Assembly (NCBI RefSeq): GCF_965222475.1
Contig: NZ_CBDCUB010000001.1
Location: forward strand, 810,982-874,981
Source: Candidatus Palauibacter sp.
GTDB taxonomy: Bacteria; Gemmatimonadota; Gemmatimonadetes; Palauibacterales; Palauibacteraceae
DNA: 64,000 nt
Direction of reading: 5' to 3'
The position numbers were made by a program, and so were the translations under genes. Below the pieces are notes generated by a model. The model worked only from the letters and a program-made list of their open reading frames with translations. It searched no databases and was not told the DNA's origin. This document shows, piece after piece, positions 7,549 to 36,495 of this stretch (positions within the stretch are counted from its first letter, which is position 1; the number at the start of each line of letters is the position of its first letter).

Positions 7549-7901
7549 GTGCCGCACGAGGAGCGTCGCCGGTGCGCGTGATGATCTTCGGCGAAGAATA
7601 CCAGATCCGCACCAACCGCCCGGAGTCGCATACCCGGGCCTGCGCGAGATACGTGGACGACGCAATCCAGCGGGCTCACGTCCGGGGGGTCGCGGAGCCG
7701 CACCGCGCCGCCATTCTCGCGGCGCTCCAGATCACCGATGAGCTGCTCGAGGAGCGCCGTGATGCGGAAGCGCTGGCGCAGGCGGTCGAGGTTCGGCTCG
7801 TCGAACTGGCCGAACGCCTCGAGGCGCTGGTCGGGGCGGGCGCCGCGGCTGAGGCCACGCCCCGCGAGGCCCCCGAGGTCCCGGAGGCCGACCCGGCCTG
7901 A
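7545..7901 (+). CDS. zapA: Cell division protein ZapA
   Basis: 118 aa. VRVMIFGEEYQIRTN…AAILAALQITDELLEE matches the ZapA V-x-I-x-G-x-x-Y and LAAL…DEL pattern. The pheT-…-zapA neighbourhood is as in Bacillus. Confidence 0.7.
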   Translation: MSAARGASPVRVMIFGEEYQIRTNRPESHTRACARYVDDAIQRAHVRGVAEPHRAAILAALQITDELLEERRDAEALAQAVEVRLVELAERLEALVGAGAAAEATPREAPEVPEADPA

Positions 7902-8096
7902 AGGCCGCCCGCGCGCCTTGCGGCGTCCAGATTCGAACGCGACGTTTCGTTACGGAAGCAAGTCGGTGTCGTGCTGTCCGTAAAGGCGGCGTCGCGTGAG
8001 CGTCGCGGCATCTCGAGATAGATGGTCGAACGGAACGAAGGCATCCGTTCGACCTGAGCGGCATGCACCGGTGGACATGTTCCGCCGGTTTTTTTT
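7902..8096 (+). ncRNA. Structured intergenic RNA candidate, possibly 6S RNA (ssrS-like), ending in an intrinsic terminator
   Basis: ~195-nt non-coding gap directly downstream of zapA, which is where ssrS sits in E. coli and relatives. The 5' TCGAACG (7933-7939) can pair with the 3' CGTTCGA (8048-8054), forming a closing stem around a central region. It ends in a terminator hairpin. Confidence 0.3.
8068..8096 (+). terminator. Rho-independent terminator
   Basis: CCGGTGG-acatgtt-CCGCCGG, a 7-bp stem with one G·U pair, followed by 8 T (8089-8096). Confidence 0.6.
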
Positions 8097-8129: not shown

Positions 8130-9701
8130 GTGCTGGAATCCATGAACGTGCCGGCCATCCTGCTGGCGATCGCGGGTCTCCTGGCGGGGGGCATCGCGGG
8201 GATTCTGATAGAGCGCCGGGGTCTGCGCCGGACACGCAGCCGGATGGAGACGGAGGGGCGCGGCATCATCGAGTCCGCTCGCCTCGAAGCGCAGAGCGTG
8301 CGCAAGGCCGCGGAACTGGAGGGAAGGGAGGAGGCGCAGCAGCTGCGCGAAGCGTGGGCGAGCGAGGCCGAGCGGCGCCGGTCCGAGCTCGAGCGGCTGG
8401 AGAAACGGACGGTTGAGCGCAGCGAGACCCTCGAGCGCAAGCTGGAGATTCTCGACCAGCGCCAGGAACGCCTCGATCAGCGTCGTGACGCGGTGGACCG
8501 GGAGCGGTCGGAACTCGAGGCCACGGCGGATCGGCTCGACGAGCGCGAGCGCATCGTCGGCCGCCGGCTGGAGGAGATCGCGGGGCTCGATCGGGAATCG
8601 GCTCGCCGCGAACTCATGGGCCAGATTCGGGACGAGGCGCGTGCGGACGCCGCGCAGCACGTGCGCGAGGTGCGCGAGCGCGCCCGAAGCGAAGCCGAAC
8701 GCGAGGCCCGCAAGATCATCTCCCAGGCCATCGAGAAACTCTCGGTGGATCACTCCTCCGAAGCCGCCGTGTCCGTCGTCACGCTGCCCAGCGATGACAT
8801 GAAGGGCAGGATCATCGGGCGCGAAGGTCGCAATATTCGATCGTTCGAGGCCGCGACCGGGGTCGACGTGGTCGTGGACGACACCCCCGAGGCGGTCATC
8901 CTCTCCTGTTTCGATCCGGTTCGACGCGAGGTGGCCCGCCTCGCCATGGACCGGCTGATCGGCGACGGACGGATCCACCCGGGGCGGATCGAGGAGGTGG
9001 TCGAGAAGGCGAAGGACGACGTCCGGAAGACGATGCGCCAGGCCGCGGACGAAACGCTCTACGAGCTGGGGATCCACGATCTGCACCCTAAGCTCCACGA
9101 GGTGCTCGGAGTGCTGCGCTTCCGGACGAGCTATGGGCAGAACCAACTCGCGCACGCGCGCGAGGTCGCGCTGATCGGCGCCACCATGGCGGCGGAGCTG
9201 TCGCTCGATGCCCGGATCGTGAAGCGGATGGGGCTGCTGCACGACATCGGGAAGGGCCTCACGCACGAGAAGGAGGGAAGTCACGTCGAGATCGGTTACG
9301 ATCTCTGCAAGAAGTGCGGAGAGAAGGATCCGGTCCTGAACGCGATCCGCGCCCACCACGGCGAGGAGCCCGCCCGCTATCCGGAAACGTTCCTCGTGAC
9401 CGCGGCGGATGCGATCTCGGGCGCGCGCCCCGGCGCCCGGCGCGAGTCGTTCGAGCACTATGTGAAGCGTCTCGAGAAGTTGGAGGCGATCGCGAGTTCG
9501 TGGGACGGTGTGGAGAAGGTGTACGCGATCCAGGCGGGACGGGAGATCCGCATCATGGTGACGCCGGACAAGATCTCCGACGAGGAGATGGCGGTCCTGT
9601 CGGAACAGACGGCACGCCGGATCGAGAACGAACTGCAGTATCCGGGGCAGATCAAGGTGGTCGTCGTGCGCGAGTCGCGTACGGTGGACTTCGCACGCTG
9701 A
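8130..9701 (+). CDS. rny: Ribonuclease Y
   Basis: 523 aa with an N-terminal TM helix, a long coiled coil, a KH domain (…GRIIGREGRNIRSFEAATGVDV…) and an HD domain (…LLHDIGK…H…). GTG start at 8130 with GGAG 7 nt upstream. Confidence 0.92.
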   Translation: MLESMNVPAILLAIAGLLAGGIAGILIERRGLRRTRSRMETEGRGIIESARLEAQSVRKAAELEGREEAQQLREAWASEAERRRSELERLEKRTVERSETLERKLEILDQRQERLDQRRDAVDRERSELEATADRLDERERIVGRRLEEIAGLDRESARRELMGQIRDEARADAAQHVREVRERARSEAEREARKIISQAIEKLSVDHSSEAAVSVVTLPSDDMKGRIIGREGRNIRSFEAATGVDVVVDDTPEAVILSCFDPVRREVARLAMDRLIGDGRIHPGRIEEVVEKAKDDVRKTMRQAADETLYELGIHDLHPKLHEVLGVLRFRTSYGQNQLAHAREVALIGATMAAELSLDARIVKRMGLLHDIGKGLTHEKEGSHVEIGYDLCKKCGEKDPVLNAIRAHHGEEPARYPETFLVTAADAISGARPGARRESFEHYVKRLEKLEAIASSWDGVEKVYAIQAGREIRIMVTPDKISDEEMAVLSEQTARRIENELQYPGQIKVVVVRESRTVDFAR

Positions 9702-14161: not shown

Positions 14162-15826
14162 ATGCTGACCGAGCTTCGCGTTCGGAACTTCGCCGTCGTC
14201 GAGGAGGCCGTCCTCGAGTTCGGGCCGGGACTCAGCGTCCTCAGCGGCGAGACCGGGGCCGGGAAGTCGATCCTCGTCGAGGCGCTCGCGCTGCTGGTCG
14301 GCGGGCGCCCCTCCCCGGACATGATCCGGGCCGGGGCGGGCCGGGCGCGGATCGAGGCCCGCTTCGAGGTCGAGGGCGTCGAGGGCATCGCGTCGCTGTG
14401 CGAGCAGGCGGGCGTGGATCACGACGACGGCTGGCTGATCCTCCGTCGCGAGCTGCGCCGCGAGGGGCGCCACCGGGCCTGGGTCAACGGTTCTCCGGCC
14501 ACCACGAGGCTGCTGCGCGAACTCGGGGAGCGGCTCGTCGAACTGCATGGGCAGCACGAGCACCAGCGTTTGCTCGACCGAGGCCACCAGCGGCGGATCC
14601 TCGACGCGTTCGGGCGCCATGAAGCGCTGGTCGCGAAGACGGCGGCGGCCTTCGACACGTTGCGCGACCTGGACGCCCGGCTCGCGCGAGTCCGCCAGAC
14701 GGTTCGCGAAGGGCGGGAACGCGCCGACTACCTGCGCTTCAAGTGCGATGAGATCGCGGCGGCCTCGCTCTCGCCCGACGAGGATGAGGTACTGGAGACG
14801 GAGGCGCGCCGGCTCACGCATTCCGAGGAACTCATCGAGCTTTCCGGTCTCCTCCACCACCGCCTGTACGAGGCGGAAGGCTCCGTCGTGGACCAGCTCG
14901 GGGAACTCGGCAACCGACTCGACGCCCTCGTCACGATCGACCCCGCCGCGAGCCTGTTCCGTGACCTGCACGAAGCGGCGCTCCGCAGCGTCGAGGAACT
15001 CGGACTGGGTCTCGCCCCCTATCGCGACGCCATCGAGCACGACCCGCGCCGTCTCGACGAGATCCGCCTCCGCCAGGATCTCCTCTACCGGCTGAAGCGG
15101 AAGTATGGAGACTCGCTCGCCGAGGTCATCCGGACGGGAGAGGAAGCCCGGCGCGAGCTGGAGCGGATCGACGGAGCCGACGACGAAATCGCCCGCCTCG
15201 AGGCGGGCCGGGAGGAGGCGGCCGCGGAGCTGGCCGAGCGGGCGTCCAGGCTCTCCGAGCGGCGGCGGCGCACCGCCGAGGCGCTCTCCGAAGCGGTCAA
15301 CGCCGCGCTCCCCGACCTCGGGCTGCGGGGCGGCCGCCTCGCGGTACAACTCGTCGGAGACGGGGAAATCCGGCGGCTGGGAACGGAGCGGGTGGAGTTT
15401 CTCGTCTCGCTGAATCCCGGCTTTCAGCCGGCCCCGCTCCGCCGGGTCGCGTCGGGAGGTGAGATGAGCCGGCTCATGCTGGCGCTCGAGGCGGCGCTGA
15501 TCGAAGTCGATGAACTCCCGATCCTCGTGTTCGACGAAATCGACGCCGGCATCGGGGGCGAGGTGGCGCACCGCATCGCCGACCGGCTCATCCGCCTCTC
15601 CGCCGCGCATCAGGTGCTCGTGGTGACGCACCTGGCGCAGATCGCGGCCCGGGCCAATGCGCACTACTCCATCGGCAAGACCACGGAGGGCGAGGCGACC
15701 CGGACGTCGGTGCGCGCGCTCACCGGGGGCGAACGCGTGCTCGAGGTGGCGCGCATGCTCGGAGGCGACCCGGACAGCCGCGCCTCGCGCGCCCATGCGG
15801 AGGAGCTGCTCGCCGGCCAGATCTGA
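14162..15826 (+). CDS. recN: DNA repair protein RecN
   Basis: 554 aa. SMC-like Walker A (GETGAGKSIL), a long coiled coil and a C-terminal signature/Walker B (…FDEIDAGIGGE…). Confidence 0.92.
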   Translation: MLTELRVRNFAVVEEAVLEFGPGLSVLSGETGAGKSILVEALALLVGGRPSPDMIRAGAGRARIEARFEVEGVEGIASLCEQAGVDHDDGWLILRRELRREGRHRAWVNGSPATTRLLRELGERLVELHGQHEHQRLLDRGHQRRILDAFGRHEALVAKTAAAFDTLRDLDARLARVRQTVREGRERADYLRFKCDEIAAASLSPDEDEVLETEARRLTHSEELIELSGLLHHRLYEAEGSVVDQLGELGNRLDALVTIDPAASLFRDLHEAALRSVEELGLGLAPYRDAIEHDPRRLDEIRLRQDLLYRLKRKYGDSLAEVIRTGEEARRELERIDGADDEIARLEAGREEAAAELAERASRLSERRRRTAEALSEAVNAALPDLGLRGGRLAVQLVGDGEIRRLGTERVEFLVSLNPGFQPAPLRRVASGGEMSRLMLALEAALIEVDELPILVFDEIDAGIGGEVAHRIADRLIRLSAAHQVLVVTHLAQIAARANAHYSIGKTTEGEATRTSVRALTGGERVLEVARMLGGDPDSRASRAHAEELLAGQI

Positions 15827-15850
15827 CCGGACGGCCCGGGGAACGGCTCG

Positions 15851-17497
15851 CTAGAAGATGTTGATCGGGATGCGGAAGTCGGCGCCGAATCTGAACGAGG
15901 CGGGCGTCTGTCCCCCGGAGCCGGCGATGGCCCGTCGCAGCGAGATCCCGAACCGCCAGGGGTTCCGCACCGGGCGCGCGCCCGACCGCAATTCCTCCCG
16001 ACCGCCCGCCTCGGACAGGTCGACGATGAACCCCAACCCGACGCGGTGGCGCGTCTGCGATCCCTCGGCCGCAACGAGGCTCGGGTCCTCGATCTCCGAC
16101 TCCGGGTCGGTGAGGGCGTAGTAGGGATCCCCCAACTTGAAGTAGTCGTACTCGAAGCCGATCCGCATCGCCGAGTTCAGACGCAGCGTGGGCCGGACGA
16201 GAACCCGGACGTACTCTCCGAGATCCCGGAACAGGAGCGTCTGGCGCGATCCGCTCACGTACGGCTGATCCGGGGGGGTGACGTGGAGCACGTACGCGTC
16301 CGACTGCTGGATCCCGTAGTGGCCGGCCGCCTGGATCATGAACACGCGCCCGAACGCGATATCCTGATAGAGCGCCAGTTCGATATCGGTCTGTCCGTCC
16401 CCGAGAGGTATGTCGGCGGAGTTGGAGGGATCCCGGAACGGCGGGGCGTTCTGCGACTGGATCGGGACGCGCAGGAGTCCGCCGACGGTGGTTCGGAACC
16501 GGATGCCTCGCTCCGGATCGTCGGGCCCCGTCGCGCCGGGAATCGGACGACGGCGGGTGATCTGGTCGATGAGGTTGACCCGCGCGAAGACCTCGATCTC
16601 CCCGAGGGCGAGACCGTTCCTCGAATTCGCCGGGAGGCGGTCGGCGAGTCCCGCCCCGAGGAAGAGAGCCTCGAAGTCGGCTTCACTGGAGAACTCGGGA
16701 AGGGCGAGTTCCGGCAGCGAGAGCCCGAGAGCCTCGAACGCGGCCGCGAAGCCCCCGAACCGCCCCAGCATCTGCGATCCCGCCGTGCTCGGAGCGGTGG
16801 GAATCAGGCCCCCCCCGCCGGCGCGCCGCTCCAGCGCATTCAGGAAGGCCGAGGTGTTGTCCCGTAACGCGATGGCGTCGGAGAGCGCCGGGCCGGTGAG
16901 CGCACCGCTGTCGATCAGCTGCCGGAGTGATCCGAGAGCGGCCCGCGCGTCCGTGCTGAACGCGTCGCCGGGCCCCAGCCCGGACGCCGCGCCGGTGACG
17001 GTCGCGGCGGTCGAGTCGAAGGCGAATCCGGTCGTCATGTCCGTCAGAGTGAAAGGCGCCCGGAAGCCTACACTGACCCAGTCGAGGACGCCCACCTCGG
17101 CCCCGAGCGCGAGCCGCCGGATCTGGGCCCGCATCACCGAGAAATCGAGGTCGCCGAACGAGAAGTCTTCGAGCGTCACCGGATCGAAGCCGAGTGCGAC
17201 GGCATCCGCGTTGAGCCCGTCGACGAGGGCGTCGGGGGCCGGGAACATCCGCCCGGCGAGCGGGCCGTCGAAGTGGCCCGCCAGCGGCTCCCGGTCGCCG
17301 TCGGCGATCGAGTCGGTCGAAGAGTCGAGGGCGAACTGCTCGGACCAGTTGAGCAGGGTCGGCGCCACCTGGAGCCACAACTGCCCGGACCGCGGCAGGC
17401 GGGCGTCGCGAAACTGCGCCTCGCAGGGTACCGAGAGCGCGATGAGGGCGAGGATGGCGAGGGGGAGGGCGCGTGGGCACCGGATCTCCGGAAGCAT
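15851..17497 (-). CDS. Putative outer-membrane beta-barrel protein (function unknown)
   Basis: Sec signal (…ALPLAILALIALSVPCEAQ), alternating amphipathic strands, and a C-terminal …FRIPINIF with terminal Phe, typical of OM beta-barrels. The start is taken at the internal Met (17497); the table ORF starts at 17518. Confidence 0.5.
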   Translation of the reverse strand: MLPEIRCPRALPLAILALIALSVPCEAQFRDARLPRSGQLWLQVAPTLLNWSEQFALDSSTDSIADGDREPLAGHFDGPLAGRMFPAPDALVDGLNADAVALGFDPVTLEDFSFGDLDFSVMRAQIRRLALGAEVGVLDWVSVGFRAPFTLTDMTTGFAFDSTAATVTGAASGLGPGDAFSTDARAALGSLRQLIDSGALTGPALSDAIALRDNTSAFLNALERRAGGGGLIPTAPSTAGSQMLGRFGGFAAAFEALGLSLPELALPEFSSEADFEALFLGAGLADRLPANSRNGLALGEIEVFARVNLIDQITRRRPIPGATGPDDPERGIRFRTTVGGLLRVPIQSQNAPPFRDPSNSADIPLGDGQTDIELALYQDIAFGRVFMIQAAGHYGIQQSDAYVLHVTPPDQPYVSGSRQTLLFRDLGEYVRVLVRPTLRLNSAMRIGFEYDYFKLGDPYYALTDPESEIEDPSLVAAEGSQTRHRVGLGFIVDLSEAGGREELRSGARPVRNPWRFGISLRRAIAGSGGQTPASFRFGADFRIPINIF

Positions 17498-30237: not shown

Positions 30238-30313
30238 GCCGTCGGCACGATTCCGGCGCTCGGTGGGCTCTTCGAGCTTGCCTGCCGCGCCACGCCGTGC
30301 CACTACGTACGCC

Positions 30314-33300
30314 ATGAGCGGAACCAACAAGAAGCTCACAAATGCGGTGGAGCAGTACTTCACCGACCTGCGGCGGATTCGCGCCTCCGGCGGCGCCACC
30401 GGAGAGAGGTCGAGCTATCCGGCGCTGTCGAAGCTCCTCGACGCCGTCGGCGCGACGCTCAGGCCCAAGGTGTTCTGCGTGGCGGACATGGCCGACCAGG
30501 GCGCCGGCCACCCCGACTTCGGACTCTACAGCCAGCGACAGTTACAGCGGGGCGTTCCGCGAAAAGGACAGGCTCCCGAGCGCGGCGTCGTCGAGGTGAA
30601 GTCGCCCGGCGACGACATGCAGGAGACATTCCGAGAGCAGGTGGCGCGCTACGGCGAACGCTACCGGCTGGTCCTGGCGACGAACCAGAGAGAGTTCCGG
30701 CTCACCGCCGTCGAGGCGGGCGGAGTCACTTCGACGCTCGAGTCCTTCAGTCTCGCAGGCACCGAGGCAGCCTTCGCGCACAAGCTGGAGCATCCGCGCG
30801 CCTTCGCCCGCGAGAGCGGAGCCGGGCTTGGGGAGTACCTGTCTCGCGCGCTGTCCCATCGGGCTACGCTCGTCGACCCAAAGGATGTCGCTTGGCTCCT
30901 CGCCTCCTACGCGCGCGACGGGCTCGCGCGGGTCGAAGCGGCGGGCGACCCGCCTTCGCTGAGAGGGCTGCGCTCGGCGCTCGAAGAGGCCCTGGGCGTC
31001 CGGTTCGAAGGCGCGCGGGGCACGCGCTTCTTTCACTCCACGCTGGTACAGACGCTTTTCTACGGCATTTTCTCCGCGTGGGTGCTTTGGTCTCGCCACG
31101 ACGGATCGGATGATGCCCAGTCCGTGACCGAAGGCGGCCCGGCGCGGTTCAGTTGGAGGGAAGCCGTGTGGCACCTGCGCGCTCCGGTTCTCCGCGCCCT
31201 GTTCCAGCAGGTCGCCGATCCCGGGCGCCTGCAACGGCTGGGCCTCGTCGAAGTTCTGGATTGGACGGCGGCGGCGCTCGACCGGGTGGACCGGACGGCC
31301 TTCTTCTCCCGGTTCAATGAAGGCGAGGCCGTGCCGTATTTCTACGAACCGTTTCTGCAGGCGTTCGATCCCGAACTGCGAAAGCAACTCGGCGTGTGGT
31401 ACACACCCATCGAGGTCGTTCGCTACATGGTCGCGCGCGTGGACAAGGCGCTGAAGGACGATCTCGGTATCGCCGACGGGCTCGCGGCGGAGAACGTCTA
31501 CGTACTCGATCCCTGCTGCGGCACCGGGGCCTACCTGGCGGAGGTGCTCCGGCGGATCGGCGCCAATCTGGAGGGACAGGGCTTCGGCGCGCTTACCGGC
31601 GCGAGGGTGAAGCAAGCCGCGACCGAAAGGGTGTTCGGTTTCGAGATCATGCCTGCGCCCTTCGTCGTCGCGCACTTGCAGGTCGGCTTGACCATGCAGG
31701 ATCTGGATGCCGCGCTCTCAGACGACGGCGCGGAACGGGCCGGAATCTTCCTGACCAACGCTCTGACCGGCTGGGAGCCTCACACGAGCAAGCCGCTGCC
31801 GTTCCCGGAACTGGAGGAGGAACGCGACCGGGCCGAAAACGTGAAGCAGGAGACGCCGATCCTCGTGATCCTCGGCAACCCGCCCTACAACGGCTTCGCG
31901 GGCATGGCGGTGGACGAGGAAAGGGAACTGTCGCTCGCGTACCGCAAGACGAAACGCGTCCGCAGGCCCGAAGGGCAGGGGTTGAACGACCTCTACGTCC
32001 GCTTCTTCCGCATGGCGGAGAGGCGCATTGCCGAGAAGACGGGGCAGGGAGTGGTCTGCTTCATCTCCAACTATTCCTGGCTCGACGGACTCTCCTTCAC
32101 CGGGATGCGCGAGCGCTGCCTGGAGGCCTTCGACGAGATCCGCATCGATTGCCTGAACGGCGACAAATACCGAACCGGCAAGGTCGCCCCTGACGGCTCG
32201 CCCGACCCGAGTATCTTCTCGACGGAGGGCGATCCCGTCGGCATCCAGGTCGGAACCGCCATCGCGACTCTCGTGCGCAAGCCTGAGCACGCGCCCGCCA
32301 CCGACGTTGCTTTCCGGCATCTGTGGGGACGAGCTAAGCGGACGGAATTGACCGCCACGGCGGAAACGGAACCCTCCGCACTCTATGAAGGGGTCGGACC
32401 TATCTTGCCGCTTGGCCTCCCCTTTTCCCCGGTGGCGGTGAGTAGCGATTGGTTCAACTGGCCGAGGTTGCCCGACTTGCTGCCGACGGCATTTCCGGGC
32501 GTGCAAACCGGCCGCGACGCGTTTCTCGTTGACATCGATCTGGACCGACTGAAGTCGCGCGTTGCGGACTACTTCGATGCGGGGATCGGCCACGAAGAAA
32601 TCGCAAGGCGCTATCCGAGAGTGATGAAGACGACGGCGCGTTTCGATGCCCGCGGCGTTCGCAATGCGCTGGTTGAACGTGGCGGGCCCGATACCGCCGG
32701 GTTCATCCGCGTCGCCTACCGACCCTTCGACAACCGTTGGCTCTACTGGGAGAAAGACACTGAGCTGCTGGACAGGAAGCGCGCAGAGTACCGCCCCCAC
32801 GTGTTCGAAGGAAATCCGTGGTTGTCCGTGGCGCAGCACCTGCGGAAGGGAGCGGTAGAACCGCAAACGGTGTTCACTGAAGAAATGGGTTCGCGCCACC
32901 TAATAGAACGGGGCACGCTAATGTTCCCCGCTTGGTTGCGCGATGACGGGCTGGGGTTGGACCTGAGCGGATCGCGACGAGCAAACCTTTCCGCAAAGGC
33001 GCAGGGCTATCTGGACCAGGTCGGTGCCGGCGTTGACGACCTCTTCCACCATGTCCTGGCAGTGCTCCACGATCCCGGATACCGCGAGGCAAACGCTGGG
33101 GCGCTGCGCATGGAATGGCCGCGCATACCGCTTCCCGGCTGGCCCGATGGCGAAGCCGAGTGCGCTGCGCAGGCCTTCGCTGAATCGGCGGAGCGGGGCC
33201 GCAGACTCGCCGCACTGCTCGACTCGGAAGTGCCCGTCCCAGGCGTTACGCAGGGCAGCTTGTCTCCAGCCATGGCCGCCATTGCCGTCCCCGCCACGAC

Positions 33301-33718
33301 GGACGGTCGAAACATGGCGAGCGAAGACTTCGCGGTCACGGTCGGGTGGGGGCACTTCGGAGCCGGCAAGGCCGTGATGCCCGGCCAGGGTCGTGTCGTT
33401 GAGCGTCCCTTCTCCCCGGCGGAGGGCGAGGCAATGGGCGACAGCCTGCCTGCGCTCGGAGAGAGCACCTTCGATGTCTATCTCAACGCACGCGCCCTCT
33501 GGCGCAACGTTCCTGCTACGGTCTGGAACTACAAGTTGGGGGGTTATCAGGTCCTCAAGAAGTGGCTCTCCTACCGCGAGAGCGGCGTCCTCGGCAGGTC
33601 CCTGCAAATCGAGGAGATCCAGCACTTCACAGCCACGGCCCGGCGCATAGCCGCGATCGTTCACGCGGTTTCTGACCCGGAGAGCCCGCTACGCTCGTAC
33701 TGGCAGCGGAACCAGTGA
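30314..33718 (+). CDS. Type IIG/IIL restriction-modification fusion enzyme (MmeI-like)
   Basis: 1134 aa. N-terminus carries GHPDFGLY…GVVEVKSPG (a PD-ExK core matching MmeI's …D…EMKSRG). The centre has methyltransferase motif I (VLDPCCGTGAYL) and motif IV (ILGNPPYNG), i.e. gamma class. The long C-terminal region has a conserved W-x-Y-K-L-G-G-Y-Q-V-L-K-K-W-L block. GC is lower than the flanks. An alternative start is at 30263. Confidence 0.8.
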   Translation: MSGTNKKLTNAVEQYFTDLRRIRASGGATGERSSYPALSKLLDAVGATLRPKVFCVADMADQGAGHPDFGLYSQRQLQRGVPRKGQAPERGVVEVKSPGDDMQETFREQVARYGERYRLVLATNQREFRLTAVEAGGVTSTLESFSLAGTEAAFAHKLEHPRAFARESGAGLGEYLSRALSHRATLVDPKDVAWLLASYARDGLARVEAAGDPPSLRGLRSALEEALGVRFEGARGTRFFHSTLVQTLFYGIFSAWVLWSRHDGSDDAQSVTEGGPARFSWREAVWHLRAPVLRALFQQVADPGRLQRLGLVEVLDWTAAALDRVDRTAFFSRFNEGEAVPYFYEPFLQAFDPELRKQLGVWYTPIEVVRYMVARVDKALKDDLGIADGLAAENVYVLDPCCGTGAYLAEVLRRIGANLEGQGFGALTGARVKQAATERVFGFEIMPAPFVVAHLQVGLTMQDLDAALSDDGAERAGIFLTNALTGWEPHTSKPLPFPELEEERDRAENVKQETPILVILGNPPYNGFAGMAVDEERELSLAYRKTKRVRRPEGQGLNDLYVRFFRMAERRIAEKTGQGVVCFISNYSWLDGLSFTGMRERCLEAFDEIRIDCLNGDKYRTGKVAPDGSPDPSIFSTEGDPVGIQVGTAIATLVRKPEHAPATDVAFRHLWGRAKRTELTATAETEPSALYEGVGPILPLGLPFSPVAVSSDWFNWPRLPDLLPTAFPGVQTGRDAFLVDIDLDRLKSRVADYFDAGIGHEEIARRYPRVMKTTARFDARGVRNALVERGGPDTAGFIRVAYRPFDNRWLYWEKDTELLDRKRAEYRPHVFEGNPWLSVAQHLRKGAVEPQTVFTEEMGSRHLIERGTLMFPAWLRDDGLGLDLSGSRRANLSAKAQGYLDQVGAGVDDLFHHVLAVLHDPGYREANAGALRMEWPRIPLPGWPDGEAECAAQAFAESAERGRRLAALLDSEVPVPGVTQGSLSPAMAAIAVPATTDGRNMASEDFAVTVGWGHFGAGKAVMPGQGRVVERPFSPAEGEAMGDSLPALGESTFDVYLNARALWRNVPATVWNYKLGGYQVLKKWLSYRESGVLGRSLQIEEIQHFTATARRIAAIVHAVSDPESPLRSYWQRNQ

Positions 33719-34446
33719 GCGTGATCTTCTTCTTCGCGAAGTTCCTTGCCAAGGAAGCGTACGTCCATGACGTCATGGCTGGCAGGCTCCACGTGAATCG
33801 TCTGGCATGTTTCAAGGACTTCGAGGAAGAAGCGACCTGCAACCGCGGCGACAGGCATGAAGGTGTTGTACACTGGCTTCAGCCTGATGGGATACGCCTT
33901 GTTCTCAACGGACGCGACCTGACCCCCGATCTTGCGGGACCAGTCGAAATTGGAATGAGCTGGCTCAATCACATTCATGTATTCTGTCTCCATGCGGCTC
34001 ACAGCGGCAGCTTAGACCTAACCGACTTGACTTCTGGTACGATTGATGGCCTGAGGGAAAAGCTGGAGATACCCAGTGAATGTCGACAACTCGGCGAACA
34101 TGCAATTATAATCAGAAACGTTCGACAGTTTATTGATCGGATTGAGACTGCCGCCAAGCTCAAGGACCACCGAGTCCATCGGGGATTGGTCCGATACTAC
34201 AACCCAGACACGTTCCATGGACGCTTCGATGGCATCGAAGCGGCATTCAGAAAACGTGATGAATATAGACACCAACGAGAATACCGATTTGCCATCGATA
34301 CTCGGACTACTGGCGTTGATCCTCTGATTCTCAATATCGGAGATATCAGCGACATCGCAATCCCCTGCAAAACAGCCACTATCAATGATATGTTTTTGCG
34401 TGGCAGCATTGAGATCAAACGCCCAAGTCGAGGGGGGGCGATCTGA
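33715..34446 (+). CDS. Orphan 243-aa protein, low GC (~50%); function unknown
   Basis: The GTG start overlaps the RM gene stop (GTGA). Composition is non-shadow-like (F/K/I/N/H-rich), in sharp contrast to the ~70% GC background. No motif I can assign. Confidence 0.5.
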   Translation: MSVIFFFAKFLAKEAYVHDVMAGRLHVNRLACFKDFEEEATCNRGDRHEGVVHWLQPDGIRLVLNGRDLTPDLAGPVEIGMSWLNHIHVFCLHAAHSGSLDLTDLTSGTIDGLREKLEIPSECRQLGEHAIIIRNVRQFIDRIETAAKLKDHRVHRGLVRYYNPDTFHGRFDGIEAAFRKRDEYRHQREYRFAIDTRTTGVDPLILNIGDISDIAIPCKTATINDMFLRGSIEIKRPSRGGAI

Positions 34447-34497
34447 AGGGCGATACTTGTGGACTCCTGCGACAAGGAGGATCGACACCTGAACTGG

Positions 34498-36240
34498 CTA
34501 CGCGTCAGGCGTAGGTCGGTACTCGACGAGCGCGGACTGGCCGACAATGCTGACGGTCCGGACGAGCCGTTCGGCGCCGTCGGGGTCGGTGACCCGCAGT
34601 TCCTCACCCGGGAAGAAGTCGACGGGCTCACGTCGTCCCTCGTCGATGGCGAGGTTGCTCGCGTAGAGGTAGGTGCGGTCGAGCTTGTCCCGGATCGGGT
34701 TGAGGCTGCCCCTCAAGCCGGGGATCTCGCCTGTGCGTTCGCGAAAGATCGCCGACCTGCCAGCCGGCAGGGCGGAAAGCTCGATATCGAGCGGACCGTG
34801 GCTTGGAATCCATTCGGTCTCGACATGCGCCGCGTACCCCGCGGCGGCGGCGAAGACCGTCAGCGGAAGCTCGGTCGCATAGAGGTCGACGGTGACTTCA
34901 CCGCTTTCGCCGGTAGTTGCCGCCCTCCAGGTCTCGTTGGGGAACAGGACGAGCAGGTCGATGCCGGGCAACGGAGCACCGGCCTCGTGCGCGCGGATCA
35001 GGGCGGTCGCCGGGGTCGGCGTGGTGGGCGCGGCGGGAATCGTGAGGAACAGATCCGCGTCATCGACGACTCGATACAGGGGCTCCTCGCCACTCAGACG
35101 GCGGGTCTCTCTCATGATCGTCGGGACGCCGTCACCCCTTCGTTCCATGAAGAACTGCCGTCCGCCAGAACCGAGGATCTTCCCCGCCGGTATGCGGCCC
35201 AGCATCGAGGCGAGCGTCTGGTTACGGGTCGCCTGCCGGGAGGCCATGCTCTCGACCGTCAGGTTGTTCGGAAGAGCGCCGGGCGAGTTGATCTCGATGC
35301 GGTCGGCAAACATGGAGAGCCGTATCCGGCTACCGCGAATCGAGTAGTCTCGGTGCGCCACCGCGTTGACGACCGCTTCGAACAGCGCCCTCTCGCTGTA
35401 CTGCGGCAGATCGACACGGGCGGGCTGTTTGTGCGCGCCCACTCGCATATTGCGGACGGCGAACCTGACGGCCTCGGCGATCTGGCGGTGTAGCGGTCCG
35501 GTAATCGTGTGGGCATCCAGCTGGCCGGACGCCTGGTCCACGCCCCGGTATTGCGTGGCGCTGATGCACGCGTTGGGCAGCCATTCCTCGGGGGCGGCGG
35601 CGCACAGCAGCACGCCGGCGACCGTGGCGCGGAGGATCCCGCCCTCGTCCCGCGCCAGAAGCCCCATCTTCTCGAGGGCAAGTTTGGGATCGGCGGCGCC
35701 CTCCGAACTCAGCAGCGGCCCCCACAATGTCTTGTCCAGCGTGCGGAAACCGGTTCCCGGAACGGGCTGCTCGTCGAACCACAGAAAGCGCGCCTGAGAC
35801 CACCTCTGGGCGAGACGCAGACTCTCGTCGCTCGTCATCCTCCGCTTGGAACTGCCAAGACGGCGAAATGCGCCCCCCGGACTCTCGTGCAGAGCATAGC
35901 CGGGAGGGACCTCCACGATGAGAAGCGGCTTGCCGTCGATCTCTCCCCGGGAGGTGTCGATCTCGATTGGTGGCTTGACCGAATCGGTGCAGAGATTGAC
36001 CACGAGCTGTTCCAGCGCGTCCAGTTGGCGGCGGGTCATCCCCTGCACTTCGCCAGCATCGGTGACCCCGCAAAGCATGGCTCCGCCCCTGGCGTTCGCG
36101 AAGGCCGCCAGCTCGTCCGCGATGCTCTGCCCGTCCGGCCGGGCCGGGCGGTCGCCCCTGAACTCGAACTCCTCGAACTCCCAGTGGCTGTCTTGGCCCA
36201 GGCGGAGCCGTCGCCGGATCTCGTTTTCGTCGAATGTCAT
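34498..36240 (-). CDS. Schlafen-like AlbA_2 (putative DNA-binding) + HATPase_c_4 protein with an extra ~130-aa C-terminal domain
   Basis: Internal ATG at 36240 with GGAG 11 nt upstream (MTFDENEIRR…). N-terminus has …SWEFEEFEF…, the AlbA_2/'divergent AAA' fold. HATPase_c_4 motif …AVVNAVAHRDYS… is present. This family is often annotated 'RecG-like C-terminal/transcriptional regulator' and is frequent in defence islands. Confidence 0.75.
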   Translation of the reverse strand: MTFDENEIRRRLRLGQDSHWEFEEFEFRGDRPARPDGQSIADELAAFANARGGAMLCGVTDAGEVQGMTRRQLDALEQLVVNLCTDSVKPPIEIDTSRGEIDGKPLLIVEVPPGYALHESPGGAFRRLGSSKRRMTSDESLRLAQRWSQARFLWFDEQPVPGTGFRTLDKTLWGPLLSSEGAADPKLALEKMGLLARDEGGILRATVAGVLLCAAAPEEWLPNACISATQYRGVDQASGQLDAHTITGPLHRQIAEAVRFAVRNMRVGAHKQPARVDLPQYSERALFEAVVNAVAHRDYSIRGSRIRLSMFADRIEINSPGALPNNLTVESMASRQATRNQTLASMLGRIPAGKILGSGGRQFFMERRGDGVPTIMRETRRLSGEEPLYRVVDDADLFLTIPAAPTTPTPATALIRAHEAGAPLPGIDLLVLFPNETWRAATTGESGEVTVDLYATELPLTVFAAAAGYAAHVETEWIPSHGPLDIELSALPAGRSAIFRERTGEIPGLRGSLNPIRDKLDRTYLYASNLAIDEGRREPVDFFPGEELRVTDPDGAERLVRTVSIVGQSALVEYRPTPDA

Positions 36241-36495
36241 GGGTCTGCTCCGATGCCGGTCCCGCGCGCCATGCACGGGTACGAGCTTTCGGCGAAGGGT
36301 AACGGCCCGAGCGCGCCGGGTGGTAGCATCCCCCAGGCACGCGGTGGCCCGTTGATTGGACCTTTGACGCGGCGCGACCGGGCCCTTGGCGGGTGGACGA
36401 AGGCTGTGACAGCAGCCATGTTTCGAGAGACATGAGAGGATGGACGCGCGCCGCCTGTCCCGGGGGCGGCGTCCTCAGGGAACCAGGGAGGCCAC

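Follow-up and report, generated by a model that had tools for sequence, protein, structure and literature searches.

In the 64,000-nucleotide stretch of Candidatus Palauibacter sp. DNA analysed here (the window; contig NZ_CBDCUB010000001.1, positions 810,982 to 874,981), a 243-codon open reading frame (ORF) at positions 33715 to 34446 starts on the stop codon of a Type IIG restriction-modification (RM) gene and differs sharply from it in composition. Is this ORF a component of the RM system, or an independent gene that came to rest behind it? We found that the ORF is intact and foreign, and that it belongs to a large family of stand-alone genes whose neighbours include RM and other defence genes as well as mobile elements. 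From these observations we lean, with modest confidence, towards a recently acquired stand-alone defence effector and not an RM control element.

An intact foreign gene behind a Type IIG gene

The genes and signals of the locus are as follows (positions in the window).

30263 to 33718, plus strand: Type IIG RM enzyme of 1151 residues, N6 methyltransferase with a Type ISP C-terminal domain; GC 65.8%, C-terminus normal
33715 to 33718, plus strand: GTGA, in which the GTG of the ORF (33715-17) overlaps the TGA of the RM gene (33716-33718)
33715 to 34446, plus strand: the 243-residue ORF with its GTG start; belongs to a large family without a name, distantly related to DUF2971 (PF11185)
34447 to 34497, no strand: spacer of 51 nucleotides between the convergent stops of the ORF and the AlbA_2 gene
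34498 to 36276, minus strand: SLFN AlbA_2 + HATPase_c_4 protein of 592 residues, convergent with the ORF; GC 67.1%

The translation of the ORF contains all the peptides quoted in the first-pass annotation, which was made from the letters alone, and the overlap that it described between the GTG start and the RM stop is present as the GTGA shared with the upstream ORF 30263..33718. A second possible GTG, at 33721, gives the 241-residue protein annotated by NCBI (P0001, from Candidatus Palauibacter sp., a genus of Gemmatimonadota; 100% identical) and leaves a gap of 2 nucleotides after the RM stop, with no overlap. We favour the start at 33715 because the N-termini of the homologues read M-S-V-I-F-F. 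The GC content of the ORF is 51.5%, as against 69.3% for the window, a difference of 17.8 points; the strongly low GC noted at first thus stands, the deficit of about 20 points then given being slightly too large. No other stretch of 732 nucleotides in the window is lower in GC (about 5 standard deviations under the mean of segments of this size), and the low-GC patch runs from about 33700 to 34450, matching the limits of the ORF at both ends. The GC content at third codon positions (GC3) is 0.55 in the ORF, compared with 0.80 in the upstream RM gene, 0.82 in the downstream AlbA_2 gene and 0.91 in the gene after that. These values and the GTGA overlap agree with the original description of a gene of foreign composition lying flush against the Type IIG RM gene.

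A Logan contig from another assembler (ERR13605531_1442902, L208; 1,039 nucleotides) is identical to window positions 33551-34589 and extends about 165 nucleotides before the ORF and 143 nucleotides after it. Both junctions are real, since a contig from an independent assembler is identical there, and this identity rules out an assembly chimera. A further family member (P0041, L007) comes from the same sequencing run as this contig, so that the family has several copies in the sampled community. An antisense ORF (34018-34488) was rejected as a real gene, for it has no family matches whereas the plus-strand frame has homologues.

We looked for the family gene beside relatives of the upstream enzyme, which PADLOC recognises as REase_MTase_IIG (2.6e-81) and in which Pfam finds Type_ISP_C (2.5e-41) and N6_Mtase. 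A metagenome scan for its homologues gave 80 loci (L103-L182) at 50-75% identity. The family gene was next to the RM gene at none of them, including 50 full-length copies with at least 800 nucleotides downstream, and the AlbA_2 gene was likewise absent from their flanks. The C-terminus of the window enzyme is of normal length and ends, like those of its relatives, after the conserved ...ARRIAAI... segment. Because this C-terminus is normal and the family gene is absent beside the homologues, we conclude that the ORF was added to an intact resident RM gene. The first-pass annotation had offered a specificity or anti-restriction control element as one identity for the ORF, and the GTGA overlap and shared orientation do imply co-expression with the RM gene. 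That the ORF is a control, specificity or anti-restriction subunit of this Type IIG enzyme is nevertheless essentially refuted by the absence of the family gene from all the homologous loci, by the lack of any helix-turn-helix (HTH) or target recognition domain in Pfam scans of the ORF, by the normal RM C-terminus next to a gene of foreign composition, and by the occurrence of the family near many RM types and mostly without RM genes.

The enzyme group to which the window's Type IIG/ISP-like protein belongs is very abundant in metagenomes, with at least 540 confirmed relatives (best 70-75% identity) that all share a C-terminal ...LGGYQVLKKWLSYRE... block followed by variable tails. At one locus of the family, in a metagenome-assembled genome (MAG) of Dehalococcoidia (L035), a close homologue of the RM enzyme (15009-16623, minus strand; 620 bits over 444 residues) is cut by the end of the locus, and the family gene lies 6.3 kb from it (8205-8699, plus strand; 164 residues by crude ORF calling, possibly truncated).

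No promoter-like site was found upstream of the ORF in our scan. Shine-Dalgarno-like motifs are scarce in this genome (3 of 15 genes), and their absence at the ORF is therefore uninformative. Translational coupling of the ORF to the RM gene is plausible from the arrangement of the two reading frames, and would be specific to this locus, the gene order not being conserved elsewhere. A sigma-70-like site (TCGACA-18-TATAAT, 11 of 12 consensus positions) at 34083-34112 on the plus strand lies within the most AT-rich part of the ORF; it is probably a chance occurrence in foreign AT-rich DNA, since the next 2 kb hold no plus-strand gene.

In the 51-nucleotide spacer we sought a terminator-like hairpin, an attC site and flanking repeats and found none. 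An insertion marked by direct or inverted flanking repeats or by a terminator was accordingly discarded, none being detected around the ORF; the copy in the window is not an integron cassette either, as no attC follows its stop and attC-like signatures were absent in pattern scans of the whole window. Outside the three-gene group the window is housekeeping, with sortilin/BNR and CsgG/TPR proteins on one side and an aminotransferase, an enoyl-CoA hydratase and an RND efflux system on the other. The defence 'island' here amounts to three genes, of which the ORF alone is compositionally foreign.

A large family without a curated name

The ORF had initially been called an orphan that could be placed in no family. 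It is no orphan: a word-indexed search returned 72 homologues at E ≤ 0.001, which share 34-53% identity with it (the source protein itself excepted) and are mostly 228-263 residues long, from Gammaproteobacteria, Chloroflexota, Acidimicrobiia, Acidobacteriota and other hosts. When a profile of 49 sequences was run against 1.84 billion cluster representatives, 4,427 matched at E ≤ 1e-3, 2,366 at ≤ 1e-10 and 433 at ≤ 1e-30; among the 150 profile matches listed, nearly all were single-domain proteins of 200-290 residues. As regards curated families the initial statement was right, the ORF protein having no match in Pfam, NCBIfam or PADLOC. In PHROGs it matched phrog_26561, of unknown function, over residues 5-220 (E 1.6e-30). 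This direct family-level match says nothing about function, and viral collections contain few members of the family. Searches of PDB sequences with three profiles gave no match for the family or for DUF2971.

The PADLOC candidate PDC-S31, an uncharacterised single-gene phage-defence candidate for which we found no paper, was touched by 2 of 61 relatives at E of about 1e-3; the ORF itself does not match it. This overlap suggests that the PADLOC authors had already flagged related proteins as defence-island genes.

Fourteen residues are invariant in 48 aligned close homologues (G23, D46, E49, G127, A130, F139, R142, Y161, Y162, K180, Q187, E189, R191 and G209), and the window protein keeps all 14. 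In a wider set of 61 members, G23, D46, E49, Y161 and R191 remain invariant, and K9, C91, G127, F139, K180, Q187, E189 and G209 are conserved at 90% or more. The AlphaFold2 (AF2) model of the ORF protein is confident (pLDDT 88.9, pTM 0.86). The residues that matter for what follows are these, all on the plus strand.

33739 to 33741: K9, first beta-strand, nearly invariant; opposite the K of DUF2971 'LYKY' in a low-confidence extended alignment
33850 to 33861: D46-x-x-E49 of GRxDxxEG, both invariant
33985 to 33987: C91 in 'NVFCxYA', nearly invariant; aligns to the DUF2971 'GIxC/SxS' strand
34195 to 34200: Y161-Y162 ('V.YYDP'), invariant in close homologues; aligns to the invariant Tyr of DUF2971 'V.Y'
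34252 to 34287: K180...Q187-x-E189-x-R191 ('FxK...YxYQREFRF'), candidate catalytic [QE]-x-E; significant alignment to DUF2971 'TK..W.YE.E.R'

Neighbourhoods and mobility of the family

The family gene was called at 90 loci, 80 after de-duplication. Its neighbours include a PARIS-like AAA_15/DUF4276 pair, CBASS genes (SMODS, TIR-SAVED), GmrSD, Type I RM with SIR2, Type II and IIG RM, a NACHT-like ATPase with an S8 peptidase, KAP NTPases, transposases, and ubiquitin-like and E1 genes. All-against-all clustering of the neighbours revealed no obligatory partner, the top recurrence being N6 methyltransferases at 11 of the 90 loci, and no small ORF within 700 nucleotides recurred in more than 3 of the 80. 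A toxin with a conserved antitoxin was discarded, as no large or small neighbour is recurrent.

RM components were present within 6 kb in at least 18 of the 80 de-duplicated loci. The nearest upstream gene of at least 150 residues carried a restriction or RM-specificity domain in 7 of 64 cases (MmeI twice, Methylase_S twice, a PstI-type restriction endonuclease (REase), GmrSD_N and LlaJI), and one further gene in this position encoded a Vsr repair endonuclease. Nearest downstream, AlbA_2+HATPase_c_4 was commonest (4 of 67), followed by HsdR, AAA_21 and group II intron reverse transcriptases, each found twice. The check proposed at the outset, whether homologues recur next to Type IIG enzymes or AlbA_2 proteins, was thus positive for AlbA_2 in a minority of loci. 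An AlbA_2+HATPase_c_4 gene lies just downstream on the same strand at L066:9588-11078, L072:9101-10495, L075:8806-10176, L076:2732-4027 and L088:8679-10223; the hosts are Fibrobacter (pairs L072, L075 and L076), a Latescibacterota MAG and one uncultured bacterium, whereas the pair in the window is convergent.

Direct placement behind RM genes was seen several times. An MmeI-type Type IIG gene stands immediately upstream of the family gene at L014:5004-8759 (gap of 177 nucleotides) and L016:4946-8711 (7 nucleotides), a PLD-type REase lies 79 nucleotides upstream at L002/L024, and in Pseudomonas cerasi (L010) the family gene follows a PstI-type RM pair after an annotated gap of 61 nucleotides. 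The order N6_N4 methyltransferase, 165-residue gene, family gene occurs at the same syntenic site in two related genomes (L001:6548-8705 and L194:5585-7711).

These arrangements bear on a role as an RM-linked guard, which would stay latent until the RM enzyme is inactivated by an anti-restriction factor and would then kill the cell in the fashion of PrrC-EcoprrI. What the locus has in common with PrrC-EcoprrI and other abortive-infection (Abi) effectors of RM loci is an effector-like gene joined to an RM operon, so that a two-layer defence, restriction first and suicide second, can be envisaged. The co-directional, flush position of the ORF in the window, the five placements just listed (L002/L024, L010, L014, L016 and L001/L194), the 7 of 64 upstream genes with the additional Vsr, and the RM components within 6 kb all speak for such a guard. 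On the other side, the RM types vary (I, II, IIG/MmeI, IIG/ISP-like, GmrSD), which makes a specific protein contact implausible; most family members have no recognised RM neighbour; none of the 50 close homologues of the RM enzyme is followed by the family gene; the GC content shows that the ORF arrived later than the RM gene; and such a frequency of adjacency is normal for any defence-island gene. PrrC, moreover, is stably tied to one RM family, whereas the ORF is not conserved with the RM homologues, and the two proteins have no relation in sequence or fold. We regard a guard role as quite improbable, though possible for a subset of loci.

A protein of about 406-488 residues without a Pfam match adjoins the family gene at L006:8834-10300, L013:6644-7915, L029:8831-10057 and L192:3501-4721. 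The same neighbourhoods hold HTH and M78 peptidase genes and ubiquitin-like and ThiF (E1-like) genes, which suggests that these loci form a shared defence island.

The low GC content seen in the window is a trait of the family and not a peculiarity of this locus. At 76 de-duplicated loci (among L001-L094), whatever the host, the GC content of the family gene averages 10 points under that of its flanks; the deficit exceeds 5 points in 59 of the 76, and nowhere is the gene more than 2 points above. Plasmids of Photobacterium, Pseudomonas, Methylobacterium, Acinetobacter and Bacillus carry copies, and some of these plasmids are conjugative. At three loci (L012, L013 and L055) an attC resembling the Vibrio cholerae repeat (VCR-like; TAACAAACGC...GGCGTTAT) begins in the stop codon of the family gene, and at L013 the repeat is found on both sides of the gene (7900-7933 and 8684-8717). 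By their sequence, these copies, from marine Gammaproteobacteria, are promoterless integron cassettes. In viral collections the family is rare: tblastn against 50,697 phage records gave no family match, and IMG/VR contained 13 family loci in 2.9 million contigs. A few copies lie on prophage-like contigs.

Such mobility would also suit a selfish toxin or addiction module, or an anti-defence gene or other mobile-element cargo, that brings the host no anti-phage benefit. The plasmid copies (conjugative ones included), the adjoining transposases and integrases and the integron cassettes are in keeping with this reading, as are the systematic GC deficit, which indicates continual horizontal transfer, the few copies on prophage-like contigs and the PHROG match. 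It is opposed by the want of any conserved antitoxin-like neighbour, large or small, by the rarity of the family in viral collections (the 13 IMG/VR loci and none of the phage records), by neighbours that are mostly defence genes and not plasmid leading-region or phage early genes, and by the fact that the closest characterised relative is a defence protein. We consider selfish cargo unlikely, though it deserves more weight than the guard.

A distant relation to DUF2971 and its meaning for function

The motif layout of the family resembles that of DUF2971, and this relation was tested. Bona fide DUF2971 and DarT sets were collected by tblastn with consensus sequences as bait, and we kept only those matches labelled DUF2971, DUF4433 or DarT in their records or in the precomputed Pfam column, together with one unlabelled DarT match (Aulosira). 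After expansion, the DUF2971 reference set comprises 120 proteins, 118 of them with a precomputed PF11185 match.

As to Pfam itself, PF11185 gave sub-threshold matches in 5 of 61 diverse family members (best E 0.017). The ORF gave no match at E ≤ 1 and did not reach the gathering threshold of 22 bits, and a remote relative from Acinetobacter baumannii scored 11.9 bits against that cut-off; a search seeded with this relative retrieved close Acinetobacter proteins alone, none of them a bridge with Pfam annotation. hhalign of 208 family sequences with the 120 DUF2971 proteins gave P = 5.8e-4 at a probability of 29%, the matching segment pairing F-x-K-(6)-Q-R-E-[FY]-R-F with T-K-(3)-W-x-Y-E-x-E-x-R. 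At relaxed thresholds, and with low confidence, the alignment runs colinearly along the whole length, from first strand to C-terminus, and pairs K9 with the LYKY lysine, C91 with the GIxC/SxS strand and Y161 with the V-x-Y tyrosine. The family hidden Markov model (HMM) scored 21 of the 120 DUF2971 proteins at 12-19.8 bits, whereas the best of 2,400 shuffled sequences reached 7.1 bits and the best among about 1,400 unrelated proteins from the neighbourhoods 3.7 bits.

A genuine DUF2971 protein (P0241, m2386173b3540) was modelled by AF2 with a pLDDT of 92.2; its strands and helices follow the same order as those of the ORF model, and the conserved residues stand on equivalent elements. The C-terminal DUF2971 motif TK..W.YE.E.R is present in the ORF as the variant K180...Y-x-Q187-x-E189-x-R191. 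D46-x-x-E49 may be the counterpart of DUF2971 'NDPF[DE]', to judge from the equal D+3 spacing. Altogether, we conclude that the family is a distant sister of DUF2971, through a link that is weak but reproducible. It is not a member, because the Pfam threshold is failed and the FNDPF[DE] and MWSHYA motifs are missing.

The closest characterised relative is Aristaios, a DUF2971 protein that Lactococcus plasmids carry as a single-gene, Abi-like system (PMC11381338); it interferes with, and blocks, phage transcription (PMC13064643). Our sequence comparisons were made with PF11185 proteins. Like Aristaios and DUF2971 proteins, family members are single-domain proteins (about 230-320 residues) without a partner gene, found on mobile DNA and in defence contexts, and they share with DUF2971 the C-terminal K..Y[QE]xExR; conserved K, C/S and Y residues also follow one another alike in both, on matching secondary-structure elements. 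Unlike DUF2971, the ORF has QxE instead of ExE, carries its own motifs GRxDxxEG and IGDISDI, and remains below the Pfam threshold.

The predicted chemistry of DUF2971 may offer a clue to that of the ORF. A survey of Legionella ADP-ribosyltransferases (ARTs) assigned DUF2971 to the ART superfamily, where it lies close to DarT and AbiGi and has a conserved Tyr and an ExE motif (PMC12522546), and PMC11381338 made the same superfamily assignment. When we compared the DUF2971 model with 350,542 PDB chains, the top match was DarT1 of E. coli C7 with NAD+ (8baq), at a non-significant E of 0.19 and template modelling (TM) scores of 0.37-0.41; the ART toxins TreTu/TreX and cholera toxin appeared further down the list. 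In the AF2 model of the ORF, a candidate ART triad occurs in order on beta-strands: K9, then C91 or Y161, then Q187-x-E189. The three-motif site of ARTs consists of [H/R] on strand 1, Y or S-x-S on strand 2 and [Q/E]-x-E on strand 5. The position of Q187-x-E189 on a strand of the model fits the ART [QE]-x-E but is not proof of it. DarT (DUF4433), the DNA ADP-ribosyltransferase of DarTG, is tied to the ORF solely through DUF2971, and the ORF differs from it in having K and not H on the first strand and in showing no significant profile or structural similarity. A macrodomain antitoxin adjoins DarT in 6 of 7 DarT loci with downstream annotation, whereas none was seen beside the family gene; the macro domain is absent from the 25 most frequent Pfam families listed for the family's neighbours. 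ADP-ribosylation by the ORF protein, argued by analogy from literature that stands two removes away, is therefore a tentative and somewhat doubtful proposal.

The same scaffold might instead carry a nuclease or another hydrolase with metal- or phosphate-dependent chemistry. Neither the ORF model nor its profile has detectable similarity to ARTs, and D46, E49, K180, E189 and R191 would suit a nuclease-type site equally well. This must be set against the two independent papers that put DUF2971 in the ART superfamily, the DarT1-NAD+ structure as top PDB match of the DUF2971 model, and the [QE]-x-E, which lies on a beta-strand as it does in ARTs; nuclease families gave no match either. A non-ART enzyme of this kind appears to us very improbable.

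Several results weigh against a DUF2971-like defence effector. Foldseek with the ORF model returned nothing significant (best E 0.8 in PDB and 0.23 in BFVD), and no PADLOC model matches the ORF, the PDC-S31 hits being confined to the two relatives mentioned above. The DUF2971 link consists mainly of one segment of about 45 residues, at the hhalign probability already given and with an ORF devoid of Pfam matches, and the DUF2971 hallmarks FNDPF[DE] and (L)MWSHYA are absent, the family having GRxDxxEG and NVFCxYAxHSG instead. The ART fold is not confirmed: the ORF model matches no ART in structure comparison, and hhalign against 8 DarT/DUF4433 proteins, a small DarT profile, was not significant for the family (P = 0.24) or for DUF2971 (P = 0.17). 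About three quarters of the loci have no recognised RM gene within 6 kb (by our local method), several neighbourhoods of the family are plain housekeeping, and the association with defence islands consists of locus counts within the family. Finally, coupling to the RM gene needs the start at 33715, as the NCBI start at 33721 abolishes the overlap.

The stand-alone defence effector is nonetheless the reading that we favour, and it can be put as follows. The ORF would encode a compact protein of one domain and enzyme-like character that is a distant sister of DUF2971, and the gene would be a self-contained, horizontally mobile module able to insert into defence islands, plasmids and integron arrays. 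In this bacterium the module would have landed relatively recently between the stops of the resident Type IIG RM gene and the convergent AlbA_2 gene. The ORF is left with no non-coding DNA upstream that could hold its own signals; most likely, therefore, transcription of the RM gene reads through into it, and its translation relies on termination-reinitiation at the GTGA. The protein might serve as a second-line anti-phage effector, inactive until infection and then damaging a nucleic-acid or protein target in an Aristaios-like way. Its candidate active site would comprise K9, D46/E49, C91, Y161 and Q187-x-E189-x-R191, and its chemistry could be NAD+-dependent ADP-ribosylation, to follow the DUF2971 literature. 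Among the identities first proposed for the ORF, that of an abortive-infection effector or hitch-hiking toxin fits best, given the kinship with DUF2971 and the defence-island and mobile contexts.

A bolder proposal, which we judge distinctly unlikely, is that the whole family is a widespread and unrecognised single-gene anti-phage system with its own chemistry, based on a DUF2971/ART-derived site (K / D-x-x-E / C / Y / Q-x-E-x-R). Integrons and the 3' ends of RM operons would be the routes by which it spreads, as a cassette without a promoter, and in some lineages it would back up or guard restriction enzymes or AlbA_2 proteins.

For this window the outcome is modest: the ORF is no orphan, and it is not a subunit of the RM enzyme. 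The locus illustrates how a resident RM gene may have a promoterless defence cassette appended at its end, and such cargo can be spotted simply by the GC deficit of about 10 points that the family keeps across hosts. The leads to follow are the size of the family and the fact that it is unannotated, its distinctive active-site signature, and the way it recurs behind RM genes and before AlbA_2 genes. The family would extend the DUF2971/Aristaios group with a different active-site signature (QxE, GRxDxxEG) that would be useful for working out the mechanism. The family spans many phyla, especially marine and sponge-associated bacteria, and if its members protect against phages, several thousand unannotated sequence clusters could join the catalogues of defence systems.

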